A stretch of 52,597 nucleotides of DNA from Oligoflexales bacterium (GCA_045105515.1 JBGCDR010000161.1:1-52597), one strand, 5' to 3'; shown: positions 37,909 to 52,597, counted from the stretch's first letter. The notes: generated by a model not told the origin, from the letters alone. Numbers and translations are program-made.

Positions 37909-38040
37909 AAATATCCTCCATATTGAGAATGCTTAAACGGCTTTAGTTCTCCGAAAAGATCTTAAGGGAAGCTACAGGATTTTACTTCTAGTTGCGGTAT
38001 AAAAAGTTAGCAATTGCGAAAAATTAAAATGGTATAATTT

Positions 38041-38769
38041 TTATAGTTCTTTAAAAATTTCCTTTGCATCTCGAAATGTTTGCTCCAGTGTTCGCTTTGC
38101 TAATCCTTCGTAACCATCGAAGGTCGAGGCGAGATAGGTGATCAAAGCGCTTTGATTTTGTATAGTATTCCGAGGGACTAACTCAAAAATCGTATCTACT
38201 AATGCAGATATTACTCTGTGCAATGATTTCTTTTTCCTTGGATTTAAGTCTTTTGAAATAATGTCGTATTTCTTGCTTATAGATATCAATTTATTTTTTT
38301 TTTCAGTAAGCTGGTTTAACAAATTTTCTTTTTCATGCTTCAGCTCATTGCATCTGGTGACCATTTCGTTTTTATCTTTATTTTCTGTTTCTTCTTCGTT
38401 GATTTCTTGTTCTGAAAATAGGTTTCGAGGGCGAAAGCGCTTGTACTTTTTTTTAATAAAACTTTTCAAATCACTTCTTTTAATTCGAAGCTCTTTTCTG
38501 CCAGTTGGTTCGAAACTCTCTAATGTCTCGTCAGTTACTGCTGATAAAATAATTTTATAGCAAATCGAATATCTCTTTTTCCCTTCTTTATCTTCTCCCG
38601 GCCAGTCGAAATAATAGATCTTTTTTTCTCGATCACTACATTTAACGAAGTCTGTGCCCTTGAGGTGGCTTGGAATTCTAATACCTGATATTATTGAAGC
38701 GGCTTCTTCTGAAGAATAATCAATCAAATCATCAATTAATTCACCGTAATCTTGTGTGTCATCTTTCAT
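38041..38769 (-). CDS. Hypothetical protein of the integrative element
   Basis: Lies between int and alpA and overlaps the integrase stop; coiled coil then HTH-like GLAKRTL. Confidence 0.7.
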   Translation of the reverse strand: MKDDTQDYGELIDDLIDYSSEEAASIISGIRIPSHLKGTDFVKCSDREKKIYYFDWPGEDKEGKKRYSICYKIILSAVTDETLESFEPTGRKELRIKRSDLKSFIKKKYKRFRPRNLFSEQEINEEETENKDKNEMVTRCNELKHEKENLLNQLTEKKNKLISISKKYDIISKDLNPRKKKSLHRVISALVDTIFELVPRNTIQNQSALITYLASTFDGYEGLAKRTLEQTFRDAKEIFKEL

Positions 38770-39949
38770 GGTTAGTTTTTAGTTCCTCCAAATAATTAGC
38801 CCAAACCTGCATCATATTTTTTCTTTCTTGAAGATGGGCTGTGCGGTTGTACGCCCTTCCATGGGGATCACGAACAGCGTGACCTAATTGGTGTTCTATT
38901 ATGTCGGGCCTAAATCCAAGAACCTCATCGAGAACTGTACGTGCCATTGCTCTGAACCCATGCCCGGTCATTTCATCTTTAGATATGTCCAATCTTCGAA
39001 GTGCTGCAAGGATAGCGTTGTCACTCATAGGCCGATTTCTGTCTCGTGCACTGTGGAATACATATGGGGAAACGTTTGTTATTGGTTTTATTGTATTTAT
39101 AATTTTGGTTGCTTGTTTGGAAAGAGGAACGATTAATGGTTGTTTTGTTTTCGACAATACAAATGACCATTCATTCGTTTTTAAGTCAAAATTTTCCCAT
39201 TTGGCATGTCTCAGTTCACCCGGGCGCACAAAAACTAAAGGTGCAAGTCTGAGCGCAGCTTTAACAATATCAGAGCCTTGATAACTGTCTAAAGCTCTCA
39301 ATAAAGGTCCGATATTTTTTGGTGAAGTTATTGCTGGAAAATGATTTTTAGTTGCAGGTGTCAATGCTCCCTTTAAATCCGAGCAAGGTTCAAAATCTAA
39401 TCGACTTGTGGCTATAGCGTAACGGAAAATTTGGCGGCAGCGGCTCAAGATCCTGTGTGCGGTTTCATTGGTTCCCCGTTCCTCGATTCGGCGAATAACT
39501 TGAAGAATGCCAATTGGCTTAATCTTGTCAATAGGAGTGTTTCCAATCCAAGGAAATACGTTAAGCTCAAGACTGCGAATAATTCTTTTAGCGTGCGCGG
39601 CGTTCCATGCTTCCTCGTTTTTGTTAAACCATTCGCGAGCAATAATTTCAAATCCGTTTTCAGAAGACTTTCTCAGCGCAGTTTTGAAAGCTTTCTTGTG
39701 TTCGCTTGGATTAATACCGCCTGCTAAGAGGGTCCGGTACTCTTGATGTTTGGTCCTTGCATCTTTTAGAGTGACATCTGGGTAAACGCCAAGTGACACC
39801 TTCTTTTCTTTGCCTGCATAACGGTACTTGTAGCGCCACCATTTTCCGCCGGACTTAGAAATTTCTAGGTGTAACCCTCCTCCGTCAAACAACTTATAAG
39901 TTTTTTCTTTTGGCTTCGCATTCTTGATCTGGGTATTTGTCAAAGGCAT
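38759..39949 (-). CDS. P4-family tyrosine integrase
   Basis: MPLT...DGGGL...WRYKYR...LGVYP arm-binding domain; VRPGELR, HGFR, QLGH, AYNR. Confidence 0.96.
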   Translation of the reverse strand: MPLTNTQIKNAKPKEKTYKLFDGGGLHLEISKSGGKWWRYKYRYAGKEKKVSLGVYPDVTLKDARTKHQEYRTLLAGGINPSEHKKAFKTALRKSSENGFEIIAREWFNKNEEAWNAAHAKRIIRSLELNVFPWIGNTPIDKIKPIGILQVIRRIEERGTNETAHRILSRCRQIFRYAIATSRLDFEPCSDLKGALTPATKNHFPAITSPKNIGPLLRALDSYQGSDIVKAALRLAPLVFVRPGELRHAKWENFDLKTNEWSFVLSKTKQPLIVPLSKQATKIINTIKPITNVSPYVFHSARDRNRPMSDNAILAALRRLDISKDEMTGHGFRAMARTVLDEVLGFRPDIIEHQLGHAVRDPHGRAYNRTAHLQERKNMMQVWANYLEELKTNHER

Positions 39950-40000
39950 TGGGGGCAACAGATCTCCATCTAGTACAAGTTGCCCCTTAAGTTGCCCCCA
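39950..40000. promoter_or_regulatory. Putative integrase arm-type sites at the proximal att
   Basis: TGCCCCTT (39981) and TGCCCCCA (39993) at 12-bp period, plus inverted TGGGGGCA (39950) abutting the int start. Confidence 0.65.
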
Positions 40001-40113
40001 GAAATCTAGGATGTCAATGGATTTAAGTAGACTTTGACGGATGCTGGAAAGTCTTATAAGTTCTTACTTAGCAAGAGGATGTGGATGTTATCGGATCTTG
40101 GCAGAACTCAATT

Positions 40114-40145
40114 TGGTGGAGGCGGCGGGAATCGAACCCGCGTCC
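40114..40145 (-). repeat. tmRNA (ssrA) 3'-end fragment / att site; not a full gene
   Basis: Minus strand GGACGCGGGTTCGATTCCCGCCGCCTCCACCA (T-arm, acceptor strand, ACCA); no tmRNA 5' end seen upstream. Confidence 0.85.
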
Positions 40146-40329
40146 AAATTGAAATGAGAAATCGTATAATACTTTGTTAGAATTGAAGCTTTACGTTATT
40201 CACTTTTTGAGCCAGAGTCACCATCGTTCTTCATCATTCATCATTCATCATTTTTGTGCAGCAATCTGCAAAGTTCCCCCTCCCCATCCCCTCCCCGAAT
40301 TATCGTGCCAGTTGGCCAAATTTCAGGAT
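40129..40329 (+). repeat. Imperfect direct repeat, copy 1
   Basis: Shares CGTCCAAATTGAAATGAG, AATCGTATAAT, GAATTGAAGCTTT, TATTCACTTTTTGAGC, GCAGCAATCTGCAAAGTT, CCGAATTATCGT and CAGGAT in order with 41240-41412. Confidence 0.9.
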
Positions 40330-41166
40330 CTAAGATGTACTTTTTATCTTTGCCATGTGCTTAAGGTATTCTATTAGATTATTCAGTTCTGTATTGGATA
40401 GGAACTCATCTGAGAAACCAGACATTTTAGACTTTGGCCAATTTCTAATGCTTTGGGGATCTCTTATTAATTTGCGGAGGTTCTGCTCACTGAAATATTC
40501 TGTAGGATTTAAAGGGAAGTTTAAGTCGGGTCCAATTTGAGAAGGTCCAGTTTTGTTTAGGGTATGACAAGCAAAGCAATTCTTCGTAAACACTCTAAAC
40601 CCCTCCTGAACTGGAGAGTCTTCGGGCACAGTATTTTTCGGAAAAATTTGAGGATAGAGTCCGATTAGGGAACTTTTAATTTCAAAAGAAGCTAGCATAA
40701 AGGGCCATTCCTCTGGCCCAATATTAGAGAGCTTGGGGTTCTCCCAAATTAGGTAAAATGGTCCCGCAGACGGCTTCCCAAGGCTTAATGGAGGCCATTT
40801 ATCTGATGTTGGTTCAATGGCAATGTAGGCAATAGATTGATCCGGCGATTCGTTTAAGATTCTATCTTTTGATATTGGTGCGGCAAATCCATCAATTGCT
40901 CTAAATTGAACAACAGCATTATGAGAGATTTTAATGCCTTCAAATAGACTAGATACTTTAACGGCCTTAAGGTTTATTTTTTGGTCTGGGTAAGCGGGGG
41001 CATCGCTTATTGTAAAATCTTTTAAATCCGTTCTCTTAAGTAACTCGCTTTTAGTAAATAATCTGATATCAGTTTTTGTTTTAATAGAAATTATGGGCTC
41101 GGAAGCCAAGGATGACTTAGAAATAAGTGCCGACACTATAAGAAGAATAGAGATAATTTTTAGCAT
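40330..41166 (-). CDS. Exported c-type cytochrome with an N-terminal molybdopterin-oxidoreductase-like domain
   Basis: Signal peptide from MLKIISILL (ATG 41166, GAAAGGG upstream), AIDGF...AGPFYLIW...WPF, heme motif CFACH, distal Met in SKM. Confidence 0.85.
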   Translation of the reverse strand: MLKIISILLIVSALISKSSLASEPIISIKTKTDIRLFTKSELLKRTDLKDFTISDAPAYPDQKINLKAVKVSSLFEGIKISHNAVVQFRAIDGFAAPISKDRILNESPDQSIAYIAIEPTSDKWPPLSLGKPSAGPFYLIWENPKLSNIGPEEWPFMLASFEIKSSLIGLYPQIFPKNTVPEDSPVQEGFRVFTKNCFACHTLNKTGPSQIGPDLNFPLNPTEYFSEQNLRKLIRDPQSIRNWPKSKMSGFSDEFLSNTELNNLIEYLKHMAKIKSTS

Positions 41167-41239
41167 TGGGGACCCTTTCATAACGATAATAAGTCCGAAG
41201 GTTTTGAACGATAGGTTCAAAACTGATTTAACTACTGCA

Positions 41240-41412
41240 GAATCGACCCACCGTCCAAATTGAAATGAGGAATCGTATAATAAATTGTGAGAATTGAAGC
41301 TTTGGCTATTCACTTTTTGAGCTAGAGTTACCAACGTTCTTCATCATTTTTATGCAGCAATCTGCAAAGTTACAACTATCCGAATTATCGTTCTAATTCC
41401 AAATTCCAGGAT
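41240..41412 (+). repeat. Imperfect direct repeat, copy 2
   Basis: See copy 1. Begins AATCGACCCACCGTCC, an eroded version of the ssrA-derived AATCGAACCCGCGTCC. Confidence 0.9.
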
Positions 41413-41801
41413 AAAAAAACTGAAGGGCCCATATGCTGGGAAAATTGCATTTACACTTACCACTGCACTTGTAACAATACAAGTGAAGCTACAGCATTAC
41501 ATCATTGTCATAGGCAATTTCACAATTATTCGGAGCATTGTTTGGAGATATACTCTGTTGTATTTACGAGCATAATCCCAACAAACAATGCTACTCTTAG
41601 AATCGCTCGTTTTTAGTACTGAATCATATTCCGATGTATAAAATTTTTCCTATTTTTCTTTGAGAATAAGTCTGTAAAATTATATTATGCCGTTGTTTCA
41701 TGTGAAGCTGCCCCAAGGCAAGAAAAAAAGATTGGAACAATATAACCTTAGTTTAGGCGATAGAAAATTTCACATTAGATCCTCAAGAGATTCATAAGTA
41801 A

Positions 41802-42302
41802 TCAGTTAAAAATAACACTTCCTGCACCTAGTGTAACAGAAAAATCCCCACCATTAGATTTACTTTCGGCAAATGATGACATCATTAGCTTACTTATTCT
41901 TATCTTACCCGTGATCGACGTAATATTTCCGTTTCCGACAGTCGTGTCTACTTTATATTCTTTAGCAACCCATTCACTATGGTCCACTTCAATATTGCCT
42001 GCACCAACTGCTAGGTTTACACTCGAAAAAGTTGGTAATGAAAAGCTCAAATTAGTCCATTGCTTGCAACCTTCAGCAGCTTTTACTGAAATCTTGTTAG
42101 AACTATGGACAACTTTGGGCGGAAATGCACACATATTATTCTGAATTGATAATTTAGGTTCCGAAATTGAATCACTAAATTCAATTCTTATTTTTCCACT
42201 ATCAACTTCTATGTCAAAAGAATTGTCCGCAGCTCCATGGGAAATAGGGTTCATAGCCACTCCTGTAAATAACAATCCGCTTAATAGTTTTCCAAATAAC
42301 AT
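41802..42302 (-). CDS. Exported beta-solenoid (DUF4097/adhesin-like) protein
   Basis: Signal peptide; repeated VGAGNI / VGNGNI / LGAGSV turns; AGGAG RBS. Confidence 0.6.
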   Translation of the reverse strand: MLFGKLLSGLLFTGVAMNPISHGAADNSFDIEVDSGKIRIEFSDSISEPKLSIQNNMCAFPPKVVHSSNKISVKAAEGCKQWTNLSFSLPTFSSVNLAVGAGNIEVDHSEWVAKEYKVDTTVGNGNITSITGKIRISKLMMSSFAESKSNGGDFSVTLGAGSVIFN

Positions 42303-42323
42303 TCCATTTACTCCTATATTAAT

Positions 42324-45300
42324 TTAAGTTTCGCTAAAGTCCCTCATGGCCTTAGCTACACTATCAATAGTTAGAATTTCTCCAAGGTCTCGGAACTCGT
42401 GACGATGGTTTATGAGTAGATAGGCTGGTACCCCGGCTTTGTTGTGTTCTCTTAAAAAATCACTGATATCTGAATTTTTTTCAGTATAGTCAGCCTTATA
42501 AAGCTCAATATTTAGTTCGTTCACAAGTTTATTGAACTTCGAGGAACTAAAAACTAACTGTTCATTCCATTTGCAAGTCAGACACCAATTTGCTGTCACA
42601 TTAACTAAAATCATATTGTTTTTGGCAATATTTATCTGACTAACATCAGGAGACCACTTTTTCCATTTTGGTCCGTCGTTATCTTGCTGCTTCTTTAAAT
42701 TAGCAGCTGTGATTATTGTAAACAAGAATGCTGAAATCGATAATATCCATGCTTTCCTTAAAATTTTTTTTCCATGAATTGCTGAATAAATTAGAATTAT
42801 ACTCAGCAAAATTAAAAAAATATTCTCTCTTGCAACCTCAATTAAAAACAAAGAGCTAAGAATCCATGCACACGATATTAGCATTATGATTGCACAAACG
42901 TATTTGAGCTTTTCCATCCATAATCCCGGCTTGGGAAGTTTTTCTACTAGCCCTGGAAAGATCATAAAGATCCAGAACGGAAAACCAAGTCCCAATCCAA
43001 TACCAATAAAAATAAAAAGCATTTTTAAGAAGGAGTCAGAACCAATTCCATACATTACTGCGGTTCCTAGAAAAGGGGCTGTACAAGGAGTAGACAGAAT
43101 TGTTGCAATAACCCCATTGAAAAACTCATTGAGATATTTGCTCGAAAAAGATGTGTTAAAAATTTTAGAAGTGAAGTTTATTGGAACGTAAATGAGCCCA
43201 AACATAGACAGAGTCAAAATAAACATAACCAACAATATAAAGTAAAGAAATTGAGGAGATTGAAAATGTAATCCCCAACCTACTGCTTGTCCTAAACTTT
43301 TCATTATGAATGTTGTTGCAGCTAATACTATAAAGCTAAACATGATTCCTAGGCAATAAAACAGGGAGAACCGGCGTATATTAGAACTAGATATCGACTT
43401 CCAATCAGCTAGGTTTTGCACCTTCAATGCAACTACTGGTAAGACGCAAGGCATTCCATTAAGTATGAGGCCACCGATAAATGCCAAGATTATCATAAAT
43501 ATTATGCTATCGTTATACCAATCCATACTCCAATCACAATGGTCATTTCCAACTAAGTTTAAAGACTCTTCATCAACGTTTTCATTGGTTGAAAAATTAT
43601 GCTTTTCGTCTTCCAAACTAAGTCCCAAGTAGCCATCATTAAATGTGGATTTCCCGTTAATTGAAATGGTTTGTTGCTTACATATTTGATTACACAAAGT
43701 TACTTTCACTAAAAAATTAATCGGTATATCTGGCTTTTCATCAATCGCAAAATCATATAAAATTCGGTATTTGGCTGGGTAAATTTCCAATTTTTTTTGG
43801 TTTTGAATTATTTTTTTAGTCCTAGGCTCCCTTAAAACATTGAGTTGCAACACCTTACCTTCTACAGTTGGTATTAGCTCAACTCCTGGCTTACCATTTG
43901 GTAATTTAACAAGGGTCTTCCAATTTGGATCTGTTATTACTTGTAAAGTTAATTCCCTAGTTCCATCTTTGTTAAGTACTCCAACTTTAGCAGAAAAATC
44001 TAATCTTTCACTTCTAGATTGAATTGGAATTTTCTGATTTAAACTAAATAATAGATTCTTATGAAAATTATTTTTCGGGGATAGCTTACTAGAAATTATT
44101 TCAGATACTTCATTGCTATTAGGTAGGGAGTATATTATTTTCAAAGTATTATTGAGAGATTTTAAAAACACTGGTTCATCGTAGTCAGGGATTCCTCTAA
44201 AAATTTCTATCAAGAATTCTGACAGTTTTGCTGTATTATAAGGACTTCTAGTAATTGAATTCAGTACCTTTCTTGTCCTCATCAATCTACTCATCCATCC
44301 TCTTTCAGATTTAGCGGACTCCATGTAAAATTTTATAGATCGTTCATCTCCTTGTACTTCATACGCATAACCTTGTAAATCTTTGAAAATTGAGCCTACT
44401 ACCTCATCTTCAACCAGACTATCTATTGAGAGTTGTGCTATATCGAACAACCCAATCTCTATTGCTAGCTCACCAACGGTCTTTATCTCAAGGGTTCTGG
44501 CTCTATTTTTTTCCAGAGAATTAAAAACCGAGGTAAGCAGCTCTTTTACGGCAAGAAGTTCATCAGATGTCAGATTTAAACCCTTTTGAATAATTCCCTT
44601 CCATAAAATAATTTTATGGAAATCTTCCATCAAGTCACTAGTCGCATGATATCTAATTTTTTTAAAATATTTTTCATTCTGTTCTGTTATTTTGAGAATT
44701 GATAGAAAATCAGGTAGATTGAAAGGAAGGTCCCAAATTAGATTTGACAATCTACTAGGAGAATCGATTATTTTATCCAAATGAGTGACCAATTCCTTGC
44801 GTGATGTTTCTGTTATTGGAGCATCTAATATTGAGAGAAGGTAAATGTATTGATAATAGATTCGATCCTCTGCGCTTTTAGGCCATAAATCTTTACTACT
44901 ATAAAGTTTACTAAAAAAATATTTTTTCTGATCAATCGACGTAAACGGCTTTGCCTCTTTTGAATAACACCATCCATAAGAAAGAATTCTGCCAACTTCA
45001 GATATCGAATTAGCTTCACCATTGCTAATTACGGAATCTATAATTTCATCTGCAGTCCGCAAAGAACCTATACTGGATATACGATCAAGGAGTTGCATAT
45101 ATTCATCAACTTCAATCCCTGCATTTATTTTTTCAATTATCTGACCATTTTTATCTATGAACATAATAGTAGGATAAGAAGTAATTGAATACCTTTTTAG
45201 CCACTCTGATGAAAATTCCGCATCTGCATCTAAATATATGGGAACAAAATTTGACATTTTATCTAGAACTGCAGGATGATTTAAAACCTTATCTTTAAAA

Positions 45301-45482
45301 ATCATACAAGGTTGACACCACGATGCAGACCAAAATAGTAATATTGGTTTATTAGTAGTTTTGGATTCCGAAAAAGCCTGAGATGGAGATTTTTCCTTCC
45401 AATAAAAAGATGGATCTCCATAACTAGCATGGCTATATAGAAAAAACTGAGTTAGTAGCAATACAAAAAAAAATTTAGGCAT
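42324..45482 (-). CDS. Thioredoxin-helical-DsbD fusion protein (1052 aa)
   Basis: Signal peptide, WCQPC thioredoxin, long helical region, LCNQIC, TM domain with MPCVLP and TPCTAP, C-terminal WCLTC thioredoxin. Confidence 0.88.
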   Translation of the reverse strand: MPKFFFVLLLTQFFLYSHASYGDPSFYWKEKSPSQAFSESKTTNKPILLFWSASWCQPCMIFKDKVLNHPAVLDKMSNFVPIYLDADAEFSSEWLKRYSITSYPTIMFIDKNGQIIEKINAGIEVDEYMQLLDRISSIGSLRTADEIIDSVISNGEANSISEVGRILSYGWCYSKEAKPFTSIDQKKYFFSKLYSSKDLWPKSAEDRIYYQYIYLLSILDAPITETSRKELVTHLDKIIDSPSRLSNLIWDLPFNLPDFLSILKITEQNEKYFKKIRYHATSDLMEDFHKIILWKGIIQKGLNLTSDELLAVKELLTSVFNSLEKNRARTLEIKTVGELAIEIGLFDIAQLSIDSLVEDEVVGSIFKDLQGYAYEVQGDERSIKFYMESAKSERGWMSRLMRTRKVLNSITRSPYNTAKLSEFLIEIFRGIPDYDEPVFLKSLNNTLKIIYSLPNSNEVSEIISSKLSPKNNFHKNLLFSLNQKIPIQSRSERLDFSAKVGVLNKDGTRELTLQVITDPNWKTLVKLPNGKPGVELIPTVEGKVLQLNVLREPRTKKIIQNQKKLEIYPAKYRILYDFAIDEKPDIPINFLVKVTLCNQICKQQTISINGKSTFNDGYLGLSLEDEKHNFSTNENVDEESLNLVGNDHCDWSMDWYNDSIIFMIILAFIGGLILNGMPCVLPVVALKVQNLADWKSISSSNIRRFSLFYCLGIMFSFIVLAATTFIMKSLGQAVGWGLHFQSPQFLYFILLVMFILTLSMFGLIYVPINFTSKIFNTSFSSKYLNEFFNGVIATILSTPCTAPFLGTAVMYGIGSDSFLKMLFIFIGIGLGLGFPFWIFMIFPGLVEKLPKPGLWMEKLKYVCAIIMLISCAWILSSLFLIEVARENIFLILLSIILIYSAIHGKKILRKAWILSISAFLFTIITAANLKKQQDNDGPKWKKWSPDVSQINIAKNNMILVNVTANWCLTCKWNEQLVFSSSKFNKLVNELNIELYKADYTEKNSDISDFLREHNKAGVPAYLLINHRHEFRDLGEILTIDSVAKAMRDFSET

Positions 45483-45510
45483 TGTTGTCTGACCTTATTG
45501 AAAGTGGATG

Positions 45511-46539
45511 TCACTTATTAAGATGATTTTCTATCTTATGTAATAATCTATAAGCTTCAGCTGGAGCTTTACATTGTTTTGAAATAGAGAAATAATTGCT
45601 ATTCTGCTCAATTTTTTTTAGAATTTTTTCATACTTTGGATTTAATGATGAAGCCCTAGAAATTTGTAAAAGAGAAGACCAAAGTCTCAATTCTTCTCCA
45701 GCTTCAATTAAGTCTCCTGAAACTAAGTTCAATACCTTTAAATATTCAGCAGTCAGACCATTACTTTTCAGGTGTTTAGAAAAATACAGGAAAAATTCAA
45801 CCCATCCAGAATTAAGACTATTTTTAACTTCAACATACGATTCTATAATCTTGTTCGCAGTATTTCTAAATTCCGCATGATACCCTGTTTCCGCGAAAAT
45901 AATCGAAAAATATAGTATATATATCCACTTAAATTGGGAACTTTTTTCAAGTGCCTCGTAACATAAATCCAATGCATTATCAAAATTTTCTGCAAGCAGT
46001 TGGCTTATCAACCTTACCTCAGAAACCATGAGTTTATCTATGACATACTCTTTAGTTATCTCATTTAAATAATCGTAGTCTCTTAATTGGATAGCGATTT
46101 TGCATGACTCTGTAAAATACACTTTACTACAGAGTAACTGATCGTCGAGAGATAAATTTTTTCTAGAGATCCGATGTTTTTCTATATTTATCTCATTGAG
46201 AATCAATTGACCAAGCTTTTCATTTGCTGCTACAAAATTCCTCTCTAATCGGTGAATTCTAGCTAGATTAATCCATGGCTGGATGATCCCAACATGAAAT
46301 AATGATCTCTTGCGTGCAAAAAAGTCGATCGACATCTTGCAAGTACTTTGACTAACTTTCTTGTCTCCAGAAAGGAAAAAGATAAAGGACAGCTGATTAA
46401 TTATTTTAGATAGATTTGAGTCTGATAATTGGAAACAATCTGCATCTGTAAAGATGTTATTCAGATCATCTGTCCACAATTTTAAATTGCTGAATATATT
46501 AATATCTTTGGGTTCTGAAAAGATGCAGAAAGTTTCCAT
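45511..46539 (-). CDS. Hypothetical TPR-like helical protein in the RiPP-like operon
   Basis: AGGA RBS before ATG at 46539; QPWINLAR motif; helical pattern. Confidence 0.65.
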   Translation of the reverse strand: METFCIFSEPKDINIFSNLKLWTDDLNNIFTDADCFQLSDSNLSKIINQLSFIFFLSGDKKVSQSTCKMSIDFFARKRSLFHVGIIQPWINLARIHRLERNFVAANEKLGQLILNEINIEKHRISRKNLSLDDQLLCSKVYFTESCKIAIQLRDYDYLNEITKEYVIDKLMVSEVRLISQLLAENFDNALDLCYEALEKSSQFKWIYILYFSIIFAETGYHAEFRNTANKIIESYVEVKNSLNSGWVEFFLYFSKHLKSNGLTAEYLKVLNLVSGDLIEAGEELRLWSSLLQISRASSLNPKYEKILKKIEQNSNYFSISKQCKAPAEAYRLLHKIENHLNK

Positions 46540-46562
46540 TTTGGTCCTAACTTTACTTGCTA

Positions 46563-46751
46563 TTAGCAAGTACCATTACATGTCGTGCCGCTACCACAAC
46601 ATCCATTTGAATGCACACTAGAATCACTAGATTCAATACTGGCAATCCTACATTCTGTTTCTGGAATATTTTTCACATTTGCAAAAGAATTTCCAGCAGC
46701 TAATAATAATTGGATGGCAGCAATTGCTTTAATTACTTTTTTTTCTTTCAT
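46563..46751 (-). CDS. Putative RiPP precursor 2 (signal peptide + Cys-rich core)
   Basis: AAGGA RBS; ends HSNGCCGSGTTCNGTC; paralogous to the neighbouring ORF. Confidence 0.85.
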   Translation of the reverse strand: MKEKKVIKAIAAIQLLLAAGNSFANVKNIPETECRIASIESSDSSVHSNGCCGSGTTCNGTC

Positions 46752-46776
46752 GAAAATATCCTTACTTTAATAGAAA

Positions 46777-46974
46777 TTAACAAGAACCGTTACATGTTGC
46801 TCCGCCACAACATCCATTGTGATTTGGGGAATGATCACCGTCTTGTACATTTTCAATTCGATTACTTCTTTGTTTCTCCTCACAACCTTTTTTCGTCTCT
46901 GCTTGGCTAATACCTGAAGTTATAATCAAGTTTGTCAATGCAATAGCGTGGATAATCTTTGATTTTTTCATCAT
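46777..46974 (-). CDS. Putative RiPP precursor 1 (signal peptide + Cys-rich core)
   Basis: AGGAG RBS; ends NHNGCCGGATCNGSC. Confidence 0.85.
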   Translation of the reverse strand: MMKKSKIIHAIALTNLIITSGISQAETKKGCEEKQRSNRIENVQDGDHSPNHNGCCGGATCNGSC

Positions 46975-47233
46975 ATACTCCTAATAAGTTGTTATTTATA
47001 AAGACCTGTGATATACAAGTCTTTGAATAATTTTTAATTAACGACAAAACTAAATAATGCTTTCCATGAGTACTGTACACCTTTATATTGTATGTTCGCA
47101 AATACCGTGTAACTGAATATCCATACTATTGCGACCGAAAGATAGCCTTGGAAATAGTTTCAGCTATAAATGATTGTCTCAATAATATTTCAACAAATTA
47201 AAGATGTCGATTTATCAGACAATATGTCCATAT

Positions 47234-48634
47234 TCAATCTTGTTTCCCCTTATTTATTTTTAATAGATAGGAAAGTAGCATCCTCTCACGTATGTTGTAT
47301 TTAAAAGATGGACATGGTATTTCTTTACCTTCAATCCATGCTTTTGGACAATGTCCTCCGCAAACTGGAAGAACCTGACAAGTAGAACAAGGAGTACTTT
47401 TATTTTGAATTTTGGTATTGTAACTTCCAAAAATATTTCTCTCGGGGTTACCCGTGATATTTTGTTCGCCCAGTTTACCAAATTCATGAATATTTTTGCC
47501 ATTTTTATGGTAACTTGGCACTAAACTCACTTCTGTGCATCCATAGACACCACCAAAAGGATCTATAAGAAAATTATTTTTATTTACGGCTAAGCATACC
47601 TGCTTTTTTCTACCAGGTAATAAAGACAATTTAAAACCAAGATTGATCATCAAACAAAACCATTCAATCTCCCATTCTGCAAAAGCTTGTTTTTCAGCAG
47701 ACTGTTTATGAGCATCATTTCCCCAAGAATGAATCGGCGCAAAGTAGACTGAAACTTTTTCATGAAGCCCATCATCTTTCATTTTTTGAAGAAGCTTTGG
47801 TATACTATCTTTGTTTGAGCCATCTACGTTGCATCTGATTGTTATAGACACATCGTTTGGCTTAACTTCCGCTATTTCAATTAAATTTTTATAGATCCTC
47901 TTAAATGAATTCTGCCCGCTCTTGAGTGGACGCCTTACATTATGTTGTTCTTCAAGACCATCTAGCGTTATTTCAAAGGACTTAATATTATGTTCATTTA
48001 CTAATTTCTGAAATCTCTGTCTTGAAAGCAAAATCCCATTAGTCACAATATTTGAGAAATATCGAAGCTCACTATCTCTTGCTAATCCTTGTAACTGAGT
48101 AGAGATGTCTTCAAGTGTCTTGAATGAAGCAAGCGGTTCAGCTCCAAACCATCCAATATTCATTGCTTTAAATTTCCCAGATTTTATAGATTTTTTGGCA
48201 AACTCAATTAATTTTTTCTGATTAGTCTCCGACATATGTTTTGAACTGTGGTCTTGTCCACAATATCCGCATCCTAACGGACAAGCTGCTGTTGGTTGAA
48301 CTACAAGCTTAAATATTTTGCTTTGCTCTACAAAATCCTCATTTTCTTCGGTTACTTCTTGCAAGCTATTGGAATGTTCTTCCACAATTATTTTAGATTT
48401 GATCAGTAAATCTAACTCATTCTGAGTTAGATTAGATAAATTCCCTTTAGAAATCTGAGTCCATAAGTCGGGATCTATGGACTGTAACTTCCCTGTTACA
48501 GGGCTAAAAAGAAGGACTTTATCAATTTCATGATCACCCAAATGCACGTCTATCGTATAATAACTTACTTTTAAATTCTTTTGTTTGATCGCAGTATTGA
48601 TAGACTGCTCGCTGATATCACATGTAATTGTCAT
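47234..48634 (-). CDS. Radical SAM/SPASM peptide maturase
   Basis: N-terminal RRE-like segment, CPLGCGYC, WFGAEPL, TNG, ITLDG, SPASM CLA...C...CSTCQVLPVCGGHCP...CP. Confidence 0.93.
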   Translation of the reverse strand: MTITCDISEQSINTAIKQKNLKVSYYTIDVHLGDHEIDKVLLFSPVTGKLQSIDPDLWTQISKGNLSNLTQNELDLLIKSKIIVEEHSNSLQEVTEENEDFVEQSKIFKLVVQPTAACPLGCGYCGQDHSSKHMSETNQKKLIEFAKKSIKSGKFKAMNIGWFGAEPLASFKTLEDISTQLQGLARDSELRYFSNIVTNGILLSRQRFQKLVNEHNIKSFEITLDGLEEQHNVRRPLKSGQNSFKRIYKNLIEIAEVKPNDVSITIRCNVDGSNKDSIPKLLQKMKDDGLHEKVSVYFAPIHSWGNDAHKQSAEKQAFAEWEIEWFCLMINLGFKLSLLPGRKKQVCLAVNKNNFLIDPFGGVYGCTEVSLVPSYHKNGKNIHEFGKLGEQNITGNPERNIFGSYNTKIQNKSTPCSTCQVLPVCGGHCPKAWIEGKEIPCPSFKYNIRERMLLSYLLKINKGKQD

Positions 48635-49951
48635 TTATAGCCCTTTTAAAAATTTTGAGCAATTGCCCCTTAATTTTTTATATGCAATAAAAATGGAAGT
48701 GTGACCCTGCATACAAAAGTGTGAATCCTGCGATTTTATGACTAGCAAAAACATATTTTTCCTGCTGTCAATACAAAGCATTATTTTGAATGCCTACCTT
48801 AAAAGAGAGATAATATTTGTTCACAAAGTTTCAATTTACCAAAAATTTTTCACTATCATAAACTCCCTACACCGATTCTTTTAAGGATTTACTACTGATT
48901 CTTATGTAACAATCAGTAACCAATATTTACCTTGTAAATTAATTTTGTCCATGCCATAAAATCCTGTAAAACGGGAATTGTCTGCAAACTATCTAGTAAA
49001 CAGATGAAATATCTCAATAAAAAAAAACGATATTTTATGTTTTTTTTCATTTTAAGCTTGCGGCGTTAATTGTAACAACATCACCAAAAATAAATTAAGT
49101 CTATTAGATGCACTTAATCATATTCCCTTGAAATCGGTAACGATGATTTGACTAGTAAAAATTAAATTGGAAGGAACTGCATCCGTTTAGATATTTAAGA
49201 TTTGGAGAAAATATTAATTGAACAATTCTTGGACCCCAATTTAGACTCACTTAAGTTTTTCACAGAGTAATTTCAGATAAACTCACTACAAGAACTGTGA
49301 AAAATAGCATCTTGAAGACATGAAAAGTTAGCTAAAATTCTCAAAAAACGAAGGGTTTAGTGGTTTAGTTATAAAAGAACTTATTCCTAATAATATCTTT
49401 AAGGAAAAATCTAAGATTGATTACATCTGTAAATAGGTTGGAACGATTTAATATTCTCCATCGTCACAATTTAGCAAAGGATAAATAATTCTTCATTGAT
49501 GGAGAAGAGAGCATGTGAGAAAAGCAACCCTCTTACAGCCATCTTTTCCGGTAAAATATCATTTCTGCGACCAAAGAAGGTACCTTTTGGAGCAGAAAAG
49601 CCGCAATCTCCCGAAATTGAGGAAAATCGGAACATAAGAAAACTAACATTCAAAGATCTTTTTATCGATAAAATTGAAAAAAATTGAAAGTATTTTTTAT
49701 ACTTAAACAAAAAAGTCAAGTGGCCTTAGAGAATATTTAAGAGAGATATCCTTAACACGTTAAAAAAGGAATAATTAATTGATTGGCGCCGATAAAACAA
49801 CTTCAATTATTTCGCCTATAGCTTTAAAAATGCAGCGTGATCCAGAGAGCTGCGGGAGTTGGCAGCTTGTTTATCAAAAAAGCCCTAGAATACTCCGCCT
49901 ATAATATTTCATTGCGAAGCTCTTGAAATATTTAGGGGGAGATGAATCGGC

Positions 49952-49993
49952 AAAGAAAAAATGCCAGGGTGGAGTACACTCTCCATCCTTGGC
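49952..49993 (-). terminator. Probable terminator of the CAAX protease gene
   Basis: GCCAGGGTGGAG / CTCCATCCTTGGC stem, followed by a T-rich tract on the minus strand. Confidence 0.55.
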
Positions 49994-50059
49994 TAGCGGA
50001 ATAAAAAAAAGCGACTGCATTTTTTTATGACTTCCTTTTGACTACCCTTAGCCCGCCAA

Positions 50060-50617
50060 TTATTCCCAAAAATTGCTATAGGTATTCTGGAGAAAGTGAT
50101 CTAGCCCCACTGCAACGTAAGATTTGGTAAAAACATACATCATTGAAAAATATAGAGAAGCGTCGAACACATTGAAAAATGTCTCAACAGGATGTCCTGC
50201 AGCAAATATAAAACATACGGCAATCATGGATATTGCTGGGAATTTACCCAATCTTAAGTATTTGTTGTTAAGTTCAAATTCAGCAAGATTTTTGAATAAA
50301 ATTCCTCTAAAAATAACCTCTTCGAAGAAAGAGGGAAACAATTGCCATATGAGGTTACTATTTAAACTAATTTTCAAAGGTATTCCATTTAGCACAAGCT
50401 TTAGAAATAGAACAAAAACAACTGCAAGAGCAGCAGACTTCTTCTCTATCTCGAGAAGGCTCCATTTTAATGCTAACCAAGTTAAGATTATGAATATTGG
50501 TATTAAGGCGTAATTGTAGCGCCATCCTAGTGAGGTTTTTACTTGAAGAGCCAACCTAGCTAGAACCATTTCTAAAACTACAAATGCAATAAGCCATTTT
50601 ATGAAATTTTTGTTCAC
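50060..50617 (-). CDS. CPBP/CAAX (Abi) intramembrane metalloprotease
   Basis: EEVIFRG, FAAGH, HFLQN. Confidence 0.85.
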   Translation of the reverse strand: MNKNFIKWLIAFVVLEMVLARLALQVKTSLGWRYNYALIPIFIILTWLALKWSLLEIEKKSAALAVVFVLFLKLVLNGIPLKISLNSNLIWQLFPSFFEEVIFRGILFKNLAEFELNNKYLRLGKFPAISMIAVCFIFAAGHPVETFFNVFDASLYFSMMYVFTKSYVAVGLDHFLQNTYSNFWE

Positions 50618-51737
50618 CCCAGCCCCCTAATCATGACATACATAAAATATTATGTATTTCAGAATGGCTAACTGACTAATGCTCCAGTGTACACATAAAA
50701 AATGACCCTTCAACCAAATATATCAAGGTTAACATAGATGCTCCGGTTTTCATTTAGCGATAAATGCTTGAAAAAAACATAAGTCGAAGTTTTCAAAATT
50801 GTTAAAAAGTGGGGTGATAGAATAAGAAAAATAGTGCAAGAAACATAAACATATAACTGCAACTGTCATACTACAAAAAAAAGGTACATGAAATTCATCT
50901 AAAAACGCATTAAAATGGGCTAATCAAGTACAATCTATGCTATGTAAAATCTTTTTTAACATTTTTCATTGATTATTTTAGTCAAAATATTTTGAGACTG
51001 TTATTTTATCCTTGATTTCTCTTCAAGATTTTTAATCATTGGTGCTGTTTTATGATATTGACTATTAAATTTTTCTTAGAGTACTCCGTGCATATTTTAT
51101 ATGCAAAGGTGGTAGGATACAATATTTTTTATCCTTTCAACAGATATGTAGGTTCAATATTGTAAAGAGTATAATCTCGTAAAAATGACCTATAAATAGA
51201 AATTCATGTTTGTAAGCGACTCCTTACGTTCTTTGTAAATGACTTTATTCCAGTTTCCGAATTCATTCCATACTTCATTTATATAGTTCTTCCAAGGAGG
51301 GACTCGAAAAAATCAAGTGCACTAACTTTTAACCAGACTAAGTTTGCTATTCTTCGTATTTCCAATCCAAGCTCATAAAAAATCATTCTCAGAACCGGAG
51401 ACTAAGTATGTCGCTGAGCAGCAGACGGACACGAATCTTTCTAGGTCTAGCAAACCTTCATTAATATGGTTACTTTTTTAGCTCACATTCTTGCATATTC
51501 TTGATTTCTTTGCGATCAATTTTTTTGCAAATATGTGGCTCCTGTAATTCTTTTAAAGATGCTTTCGTTGATTTTTAATTATCAAACTAAAAGTATGTTA
51601 ATCATCTTAAATTTAAATCTTGTTATACTGGAAATTGGGAATCAACTTCAATCAATGACCTCGGAAAGATGAGATTCCCCAAAAACGGTAGACAATACTA
51701 TTCGAATGGCTTATTACCGAAATCAAGGAGATAAGCC

Positions 51738-52052
51738 GTGAAAATGAAATCGCCATCAAGACCTACTTACAGTGTAGAATTCAGAGAAGCTGCAGTGGCT
51801 AAGTGCCTAGAAATAGGTGTAACTGAGACATGTCAGCAACTAGGGGTATCTCTATCCACCCTAAATGGTTGGAAGAAGAAATATGGCTCACAAGGAAGCT
51901 CATCAGGAACCATAGCGAAGCCGAGCTACGAAGACCTGGAGCTAGAGGTTAAAAAGCTCAAAAAAGAGCTTACATATGTAAGTCAGATTAACCAGGTTTT
52001 AAAAAAAAGCACAGCCATCTTTTGCGCAGAACAGATGGAAGATTTGCGGTGA
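51738..52052 (+). CDS. IS3 transposase OrfA
   Basis: YSVEFREAAV...LGVSLSTL..W HTH, leucine zipper, LKK ending; AAGGAG RBS. Confidence 0.92.
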   Translation: MKMKSPSRPTYSVEFREAAVAKCLEIGVTETCQQLGVSLSTLNGWKKKYGSQGSSSGTIAKPSYEDLELEVKKLKKELTYVSQINQVLKKSTAIFCAEQMEDLR

Positions 52053-52460
52053 TACAAGCCATAAGCAATGAAAGTAGCCAAATACCGATAGACTTCTTAT
52101 GCACCTACTTTGGCGTTAGCAGGAGTGGGTATTACAAATGGCAAAGTTGCAAAAAGACCATCAAATTTGTCAGAAAAGAAAAGCTCTGTGCTGCCATCAA
52201 AGAATCTTTTCTTGCGAGTGATAAGACATATGGATCACCAAGGATTTATGATGATCTCATAGATAAAGGCTTTAGAGTCAGCGAGAATACTGTAGCGAAG
52301 TATATGCAGGAGCTAGGGCTAGATGCCAGGTTAAAGAAGAAATTTATGGTTAAAACAACTGACTCAAATCATAATAGTCCAATTGCTGACAGGCTATTCA
52401 AAGTTGAAGATCATAATAGCCTGCCATCAGCCCCTGGTGAGGTTCTGGCAGGCGATATAA
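52022..52460 (+). CDS. IS3 transposase OrfB, 5' exon
   Basis: GVSRSGYYKW, TYGSPRI, TTDSNH, and AGDI (first Asp of DDE), where homology stops abruptly. Confidence 0.88.
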
Positions 52461-52597
52461 GTGTGCTGCAGCAAGCAGCGTGAAAGATGAGGGTATGGCC
52501 CCTCGCAGTCGCCTTGCAGGAGGAGACTGCAAACCACCGTAAGCGGCTTTGATAAAGAGTCATGGTCGTGAGCGTTACGGAAAAGGCAGTATGAACT
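52461..52597 (+). mobile_element. 5' end (domain I) of a group II intron
   Basis: Starts GTGTG (GUGYG consensus) exactly where OrfB breaks; GC-richer, with stems GAGGG/CCCTC and GCAGTC/GACTGC. Confidence 0.8.

Follow-up and report, generated by a model that had tools for sequence, protein, structure and literature searches.

The window analysed here, a 52,597-nt stretch of DNA from an Oligoflexales bacterium (GCA_045105515.1, JBGCDR010000161.1:1-52597), carries on its minus strand a compact gene unit in which a radical S-adenosylmethionine (rSAM) peptide maturase with a SPASM domain precedes two small paralogous peptides, termed pepA and pepB. Taken jointly, the evidence makes it on balance probable that the locus is an operon for the biosynthesis of ribosomal peptides, which would undergo cross-linking in the cytoplasm and thereafter export by the general secretory (Sec) route. 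Established here are the composition of the unit, the conservation of the motifs, the co-occurrence of peptides and enzymes, and the synteny.

Peptide cores and the maturase family

The maturase gene (47234-48634, 466 aa) is followed after 259 nt by pepA (46777-46974, 65 aa) and then by its paralogue pepB (46563-46751, 62 aa), the two peptides being 42-43% identical. Both open reading frames (ORFs) have a ribosome-binding site (AGGAG or AAGGA, 5-10 nt 5' of the ATG) and share one plan: the start is rich in K and leads into a hydrophobic run free of charges, which is followed by SQA or SFA (the signal-like region spanning residues 1-25 in pepA and 1-24 in pepB), a one-Cys spacer, acidic in pepA, and a C-terminal core. 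This core (HNGCCGGATCNGSC in pepA, SNGCCGSGTTCNGTC in pepB) holds two N-x-x-C motifs and two further cysteines beside those of the motifs. An earlier reading of this DNA from its sequence alone (the sequence-only reading) had described these peptide features together with the rSAM/SPASM gene and a thioredoxin-DsbD fusion, and all of them are borne out on the minus strand; its gene list, correct for these four genes, missed a 352-aa TPR-like gene and a 166-aa toastrack-like gene, both described below.

The twin NxxC core is supported, by sequence comparison, as a conserved feature of maturase-adjacent peptides. The comparison covered 81 loci: 78 retrieved loci whose enzyme ORF is intact, the extended locus of G001 (a metagenome-assembled genome (MAG) of the same taxonomic family, with the cluster closest to that of the window), the window itself and a second cluster on contig C363 of the same genome. 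A small ORF on the enzyme strand, at most 1.6 kb upstream or 0.9 kb downstream and bearing a pair of [N/D]xxC motifs that are separated by 12 residues or fewer, adjoins the maturase in 46 of the 81 loci, as against 19 hits among the 6444 remaining small ORFs of the same loci, which served as controls. When a signal-peptide heuristic is added, the corresponding figures are 19/81 loci and 0/6444 controls. The sequence-only reading had asked for co-occurrence of such peptides with homologous rSAM enzymes and with DsbD: the first part stands on these counts, while the fusion is found in two genomes only. The residue preceding the motif Cys is mostly G, A or S. In an alignment of 12 precursors from the window clade, only two positions are invariant, namely N and C in the first NxxC; Ala at -1 of the inferred cut is nearly invariant and the remainder diverges. 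The pepA peptide and the G001 precursor are homologous (38% identity), and the C363 peptides have three and four NxxC motifs. Seven neighbouring peptides gave no family match, and weak matches of pepA/pepB to DUF6520 (E 0.0036) and CopL (E 0.0029), both below their cut-offs, were dropped.

The maturase itself is a member of an extensive and broadly distributed family that is as yet undescribed and is named by no NCBIfam model. It matches Pfam Radical_SAM (E 2e-12) and the SPASM model TIGR04085 (E 1e-10). The cysteines of its CxxxCxxC motif (C118, C122, C125) and seven SPASM cysteines (C347, C366, C416, C419, C425, C429, C441) are invariant across 25 homologues, i.e. it combines the rSAM core with the seven-Cys SPASM pattern for two auxiliary clusters. 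An N-terminal extension of ~105 aa aligns with the N-terminal region of other RiPP (ribosomally made, post-translationally modified peptide) maturase models that bears the RiPP recognition element (RRE). Among the 25 of 53 NCBIfam matches listed, none reaches its cut-off and no NxxcB model appears: TIGR04463 ranks first (224 bits versus a cut-off of 525), followed by CefB, Clo7bot, FlmE/OhkG, geopeptide and PapB (NF047865, 83.5 bits versus 340), and the SCIFF maturase model TIGR03974 (54.4 versus 425) and HxsB (53 versus 370) also fall far short. Seven homologues from other clades likewise remain below every NCBIfam cut-off (TIGR04463, 189-248 bits), which upholds the sequence-only claim of an uncatalogued rSAM/SPASM cluster. 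The nearest curated relatives (TIGR04463/CrpC, CefB, Clo7bot, PapB, SCIFF) are all thioether or Cys-peptide maturases, and the closest solved structure is CteB (5wgg, E 4e-8); the sactipeptide maturase model RumMC is matched by two homologues only, at ~32-34 bits.

Searches recovered 792 maturase homologues at E<=1e-10, the nearest 47% identical and all with generic source names only. A pattern scan with one genome per species found 331 maturase loci spanning Bdellovibrionota, Alpha- and Gammaproteobacteria, Cyanobacteriota, Bacteroidota, Actinomycetota and Chloroflexota, of which 80 were retrieved for neighbourhood analysis; one listed genome, G016, is G001 again (same contig, same coordinates). 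A locus from the same class as the window genome comes from a Silvanigrella MAG (L004, G128). No description of the maturase-peptide family was found in the literature searched, which lay outside subscription-only papers and supplements (e.g. the rSAM compendium, PMC10288494).

Leader types and accessory proteins

Leader type tracks enzyme clade. In a quick maximum-likelihood tree of the 81 enzymes, with leaders labelled by eye (L028 and L080 from their BLAST cluster membership), the window enzyme and that of G001 pair as sisters (support 97) within a supported 13-member group from Oligoflexia, Caedibacter, Holosporaceae, Rickettsiaceae and one unclassified proteobacterium. Eight members of this group have signal-type precursors; no precursor was found for the other five, at least two of which (L016, L022) lie on contigs cut just upstream of the enzyme. 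Signal-type precursors recur in a 20-member cyanobacterial clade (support 100), where a conserved LNRANLN-like stretch follows the signal region. The Bacteroidota clade (support 96) instead shows double-glycine leaders, and a ~730-aa C39-ABC exporter is encoded in 17 of its loci. Alphaproteobacterial and Kitasatospora loci have still other leaders, often together with YcaO, whose gene is present in eight loci, G001 included. Thus, the signal-like N-termini highlighted by the sequence-only reading recur in two enzyme clades but give way to another leader and exporter in the Bacteroidota.

Clades with signal-type precursors are without the C39-ABC exporter, and a domain scan of the window cluster proteins likewise found no ABC or C39 gene, as had been claimed from the sequence; the sole C39 match of the genome is on contig C89, not on the window contig. 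Both pepA and pepB pass the signal heuristic. Because the signal is present where the exporter is absent and the exporter where the signal is absent, which is the strongest indirect argument available, pepA and pepB are predicted to be exported by Sec.

The gene downstream of pepB encodes p352 (45511-46569, 352 aa, or 342 aa from the probable ATG at 46539, which is preceded by its own AGGA). It has no Pfam or NCBIfam match and no signal peptide; its AlphaFold model (predicted local distance difference test score, pLDDT, 92.6) is an all-alpha helical repeat, for which Foldseek returned generic TPR proteins only. Homologues adjoin the rSAM gene in G001 (locus L062), in two Silvanigrella-like MAGs (L004, L022) and in two further relatives (G008, G009), and a profile search of 1.84 billion representatives yielded 142 relatives at E<=1e-3. 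The rSAM gene is directly followed by a ~340-aa protein without a family match in another 28 loci, which come from cyanobacteria, Bacteroidota, Chloroflexota and further groups. Profile-profile comparison of the p352 family (46 sequences) with this 28-locus family gave 65% probability (E 6e-5, 205 columns); an earlier comparison with a four-sequence p352 alignment had given 3.9%. The nearly invariant N and R of both families fall in a shared motif (QPWINLxRLDR / HRIQQxHNLxR). These matches are suggestive rather than proof, and the two proteins are probably distant homologues, which leads to the proposal that the enzyme and the TPR-like protein form the core of the family. We regard p352 as probably cytoplasmic and TPR-like, and as the most widely conserved accessory gene. 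A complex prediction for rSAM and p352 scored 0.00, which is no verdict and weighs neither way.

The next gene encodes the thioredoxin-DsbD fusion (42324-45482, 1052 aa), which is predicted to be exported and matches Thioredoxin_7 (E 5e-21) and DsbD_TM (PF02683, E 6e-16, 58.8 bits). Its domains run as follows: signal peptide, thioredoxin (WCQPC), helical-repeat region (~144-483), beta-sandwich (~489-598), DsbD-type membrane domain and C-terminal thioredoxin (WCLTC). In the structural model (pLDDT 70) the signal is followed by a thioredoxin that most resembles DsbD-gamma and DsbH, then by ~17 helices and a beta-sandwich modelled with low confidence. The match to the DsbD model NF001419 (136 bits versus a cut-off of 330) is confined to residues 656-1027; accordingly, the protein has the two membrane-domain cysteines and the C-terminal CxxC thioredoxin of DsbD, and in place of the canonical N-terminal alpha domain its N-terminal 650 residues consist of the thioredoxin, the helical repeats and the low-confidence beta-sandwich. 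All eight cysteines are conserved in the G001 protein, which is 30% identical over the full length: C56/C59, C597/C601 in the beta-sandwich, C679 and C800 in the membrane domain, and C967/C970.

The first ~600 residues of the fusion are homologous to stand-alone, predicted secreted thioredoxin proteins of ~530 aa, and its N-terminal half derives, as judged from this homology, from an unnamed family of such proteins. Members of that family (~520-550 aa, with a DsbD-gamma-like thioredoxin and a helical domain) were seen at L088-L097, L105 and L114-L186. Of 131 genomes of the phylum, 69, the window's included, give a match to its thioredoxin domain, as do many soil metagenome contigs. Among the same 131 genomes the maturase occurs in seven and the full fusion in two, both of which also have the enzyme.

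These two are the window genome and G001, members of one taxonomic family, where the unit is arranged as precursor, rSAM, TPR partner, YcaO, fusion and toastrack-like protein in G001, and the shared proteins are 29-46% identical. This tight conserved synteny supports a link between the fusion and the peptides, in two related genomes only. Since the fusion is confined to them, being found in one of the 80 retrieved loci and not in the C363 cluster, it is best seen as a lineage-specific addition and not as the dedicated general partner that the sequence-only reading had envisaged. In a metagenome scan none of 80 loci matched both halves of the fusion, the scan using two short patterns only and so being of limited sensitivity; none of these 80 loci had genes for the rSAM enzyme, the partner, the toastrack protein or the peptides.

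The last gene of the unit encodes a beta-rich, predicted secreted, toastrack-like protein (41802-42302, 166 aa) with a sub-threshold match to DUF4097 (E 4.6e-4, 20.1 bits versus a cut-off of 22.9). The gene directly after the fusion in G001 gives such a match too (E 3.3e-3) and its product is 29% identical to the window protein, and a neighbour in the Caedibacter locus L001 also matches DUF4097 (E 1.9e-3). The treatment of such small secreted neighbours as a single family was rejected: their alignment is too weak, and they look like two groups. From pepA to the toastrack gene the intergenic gaps are 21-28 nt, with the 352-aa gene counted from the ATG at 46539. One promoter-like match (10/12) lies between rSAM and pepA; a promoter and terminator scan of 41500-50700 was uninformative (51 promoter-like sites versus 40.6 +/- 6.2 in shuffles).

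The window genome has a second, paralogous cluster on contig C363 (locus L187, 1745-6830), encoding in this order a periplasmic-binding protein, a histidine kinase, two signal-bearing NxxC peptides, a 168-aa secreted protein and an rSAM enzyme 42% identical to the window maturase. This 7-kb contig showed neither TPR partner nor DsbD fusion. Its sensor pair, directly upstream, hints at peptide sensing.

Further associations were observed in other clades. In seven Nostocales loci (L010, L011, L014, L017, L018, L023, L026) the rSAM-peptide pair adjoins a divergent pair of ~390-aa genes (381-416 aa), one with sigma-70 region 4 and the other with DUF1822, and in three of these it also adjoins a ~1750-aa nSTAND-WD40 protein. 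Six Bacteroidota loci (L049, L050, L053, L055, L058, L059) combine the rSAM family with a LanB-type lanthipeptide dehydratase, which suggests that their peptides carry both radical and lanthionine-type thioethers.

Proposed mechanism and alternatives

rSAM enzymes act in the cytoplasm, and the predicted pathway would begin there. The precursor would comprise a Sec signal, then a leader-like acidic spacer in which hydrophobic and acidic residues alternate over a short stretch, and finally the twin N-x-x-C core. The rSAM/SPASM enzyme, probably with its TPR-like partner, would connect each motif Cys through its sulfur to the Asn that lies three residues upstream. The predicted link, by analogy with NxxcB, is a C-beta thioether, giving two small rings per peptide, and it is on this analogy that we infer Cys-Asn C-beta chemistry for pepA and pepB. 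Sec would then export the peptide, with signal peptidase I cutting after SQA or SFA. In the periplasm the fusion would deliver reducing power from the cytoplasm and act on the three leftover cysteines, of which two lie in the core and one in the spacer, and the predicted secreted toastrack-like protein would be a further periplasmic partner; this target of the fusion and any biological role of the product, the metal chelation or toxicity suggested by the sequence-only reading included, are presumptive.

In its fullest form, which we put forward tentatively as a possibility short of probable, the system would be a new class of thioether RiPP. In this class a Sec signal would replace the dedicated exporter, such that rSAM-made rings are threaded through SecYEG; a lineage-specific conduit of thioredoxin, peptide-holding helical domain and DsbD would, together with the toastrack protein, manage the free thiols; the product would be a periplasmic redox-active or metal-binding peptide; and the enzyme-plus-TPR core would have been re-plugged into three export/leader solutions across phyla.

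Several observations weigh against the reading of the locus as a Sec-routed operon for NxxC thioethers with its own redox partner. A twin-motif ORF is missing from 35 of the 81 loci: some are on cut contigs (L016, L022, L025), others (G001, several cyanobacteria) have cores spaced N-x-C or N-x-x-x-C, a portion of the Bacteroidota clade has other Cys cores, and in the rest no candidate was found. The signal-peptide test is a home-made heuristic, which 4.6% of the control ORFs pass and which misses L015 and L021, both signal-like by eye. In three loci from one related genus, L101 (G006), L102 (G009) and L103 (G008), intact signal-plus-NxxC precursors are kept beside rSAM genes that are split into two ORFs, carry two TAG stops or retain only the last 175 residues; this reflects either enzyme decay with peptide retention or assembly error. 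The fusion is absent from 79 of the 80 retrieved loci and from C363, and the synteny between the window and G001 could be explained by shared ancestry. According to the available part of the bufferin paper (PMC11626156), macrocyclic peptides would be poor Sec substrates and fit SecY poorly. The acceptors of CrpC and PapB, in what is accessible of their descriptions, lie downstream of the Cys and not upstream. Finally, the window enzyme is likened to NxxcB by motif, not by sequence comparison.

The alternative that survives best, possible though not favoured, is that the fusion and the toastrack-like protein form a separate envelope redox module that merely adjoins the peptide genes in one bacterial family. 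This would fit the presence of the fusion beside rSAM in only two related genomes and its absence from nearly all other loci surveyed, C363 and the metagenome loci included, the wide distribution of the homologous thioredoxin domain, mostly in genomes without the rSAM gene and in stand-alone proteins that align with the first ~600 residues, and the c-type cytochrome gene 467 nt downstream. The short same-strand gaps point the other way, as does the retention of gene order at only 29-30% identity while the flanks differ (in G001 there is no cytochrome and YcaO is inserted); moreover, the Cys-rich, predicted exported peptides would be plausible clients of the fusion.

Rather unlikely, in our estimate, is the same system with the same export but other chemistry, namely alpha-thioethers as in sactionines, other residue pairs, or more than two cross-links using all four core cysteines. 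Across phyla, N or D three positions before the Cys with a small residue just before it reproduces the NxxcA pattern, and the higher-scoring relatives of the maturase are all non-alpha thioether or uncharacterised Cys-peptide maturases, with RumMC trailing far behind at the scores given above. Yet QmpB, in the accessible account of it, forms an Asn C-alpha to Cys S link, and CrpC, the nearest curated family, uses acceptors 3-4 residues after the Cys (PMC13692751, available part); the first motif of G001 is N-C-C, several cyanobacterial cores are N-x-x-x-C, and the two further core cysteines have no assigned role.

More improbable still is that the hydrophobic N-termini are RiPP leaders or membrane anchors and not cleaved Sec signals, so that the peptides stay in or on the cell or exit otherwise. 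In three phyla these N-termini keep a basic/hydrophobic/small-x-small layout without sequence conservation, as signal peptides evolve and unlike RRE-bound leaders; cyanobacterial precursors have a separate conserved leader-like motif (LNRANLN-like) after the signal region, and exporters are confined to clades without the signal. These outweigh a CPBP-type intramembrane protease gene 1.4 kb upstream and the above-mentioned caution about macrocycles in SecY, which would speak for anchors or leaders. That pepA and pepB are unmodified small secreted Cys-rich, perhaps metal-binding, peptides while the rSAM enzyme acts on something else is very improbable: the weak CopL match of pepA (E 0.003, 18 bits versus a cut-off of 40) and the precursors persisting beside broken rSAM genes in three genomes are set against a peptide-enzyme co-occurrence across phyla far above chance and, among the window ORFs and in the domain scan, no other Cys-rich candidate substrate nearby.

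A cytoplasmically cross-linked, Sec-exported peptide thus remains our preferred reading, and it places in view a large uncurated enzyme-peptide family, with 331 loci among one-per-species genomes and a clear, testable chemical hypothesis. The clade-wise exchange of leader and export (Sec signal; double-glycine leader with C39-ABC; other leaders with YcaO) constitutes a natural experiment on how a RiPP changes its export route. It also raises directly whether SecYEG passes thioether macrocycles, which the bufferin authors doubt (PMC11626156, available part). Cultured carriers are found among the matches, e.g. Trichormus variabilis ATCC 29413, Crocosphaera chwakensis CCY0110, Nitrobacter winogradskyi, Flavobacterium and Kitasatospora; therefore the family can be studied independently of the uncultured window organism.

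As to the surroundings, the CPBP/Rce1-like protease gene (50060-50617, minus strand), located 1.4 kb upstream of the rSAM gene and on its strand, was left out of the unit because no counterpart was seen in related loci. On the other side of the unit, a tmRNA-like (transfer-messenger RNA-like) sequence (39974-40255, minus strand) adjoins a P4-type integrase gene (38759-39958); it scores below the Rfam gathering threshold (31.7 versus 47 bits, E 5.5e-11). About 185 nt of this sequence and its flank (40129-40313) are repeated 1.1 kb away (41240-41398) at 89-97% identity, and the repeats bracket the c-type cytochrome gene (40330-41334), an arrangement suggestive of an old insertion or duplication event at the ssrA site. 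Toward the window end, two overlapping ORFs (51738-52483, plus strand), labelled by appearance only, resemble IS3-like transposases, and at 52489-52597 on the plus strand a group II intron begins (Rfam RF01999, 97.7 bits). G+C drops from ~0.40 to 0.32-0.34 across 42-52 kb. A search for sequencing runs listed three DNA holders, all of one study that may represent the source sample, and no RNA holder.

Comparison with known systems

The closest parallel in motif is offered by the streptococcal NxxcA/NxxcB system (Caruso et al. 2019, via PMC9389541 and PMC8326336, of which parts are used here), which likewise combines an rSAM/SPASM maturase with an N-x-x-C near the core C-terminus. NxxcB links the sulfur of Cys23 to the C-beta of Asn20 in NxxC and tolerates Asp at that position, which matches the alternation of N and D in the window family. 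Whereas NxxcA, in the same partial sources, has one cross-link, the peptides of the window family have 2-4 motifs. The streptococcal clusters are described there as tied to shp/rgg quorum sensing; at the window locus, no shp/rgg genes were found among the ORFs of 38000-52597. The window cluster further differs from NxxcA/NxxcB in its putative Sec-type signal, its TPR-like partner and its lineage-specific DsbD fusion.

Among ranthipeptide-type enzymes, CrpC of Methanococcus voltae (TIGR04463; reported in 2026, PMC13692751, available part) installs ranthionine cross-links and is comparable to the window enzyme in its RRE-rSAM-SPASM organisation, three clusters and Cys-rich substrates. Its substrate CrpA differs from pepA and pepB: it is a large repeat protein, for which that part of the paper reports no signal peptide, and its acceptors lie downstream of the Cys (CAGM, CAVD, CPLV), opposite to the window motif. 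PapB/freyrasin and the CteB/SCIFF ranthipeptides share with the window system, as predicted here, a thioether-forming rSAM/SPASM enzyme; they differ in motif (CxxxD and Cys-Thr, respectively) and in the absence of a Sec signal, and the window maturase scores far below the cut-offs of their families.

Precedents for the export route come from two other directions. Bufferins start as RiPP precursors that are rich in Cys and carry a Sec signal; they undergo modification in the cytoplasm and then reach the periplasm (PMC11626156, from the accessible text), a course that is predicted for the window peptides too. In bufferins MNIO and DUF2063 proteins make thiooxazoles, whereas the window cluster uses rSAM, and the domain scan found neither MNIO (DUF692) nor DUF2063 among the cluster proteins. 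The same source reports Sec-signal RiPP precursors such as bufferins to be rare, which bears out the sequence-only reading on this point; its reach is narrowed by HxsA, an rSAM-matured protein with a signal peptide that has already been published (PMC13128918, available part). The HXS antiphage system (HxsA-D) indeed resembles the window system as predicted in having a signal-peptide protein matured by rSAM enzymes and active in the periplasm, but HxsA, as presented in that part, has HxS repeats and a peptidoglycan-binding domain and no NxxC core.

The fusion, for its part, shares with DsbD the membrane domain with two conserved cysteines and the C-terminal thioredoxin, the canonical alpha domain being replaced by the ~600-aa thioredoxin/helical/beta-sandwich module. 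In Foldseek its N-terminal thioredoxin with helical repeats resembles YbbN (3qou) and the DsbH-domain protein 7tkv; CnoX/YbbN is cytoplasmic, whereas the N-terminal module of the fusion is predicted to be exported. From these parallels, the system is best read as a Sec-routed form of the NxxC/ranthipeptide-type thioether peptides.

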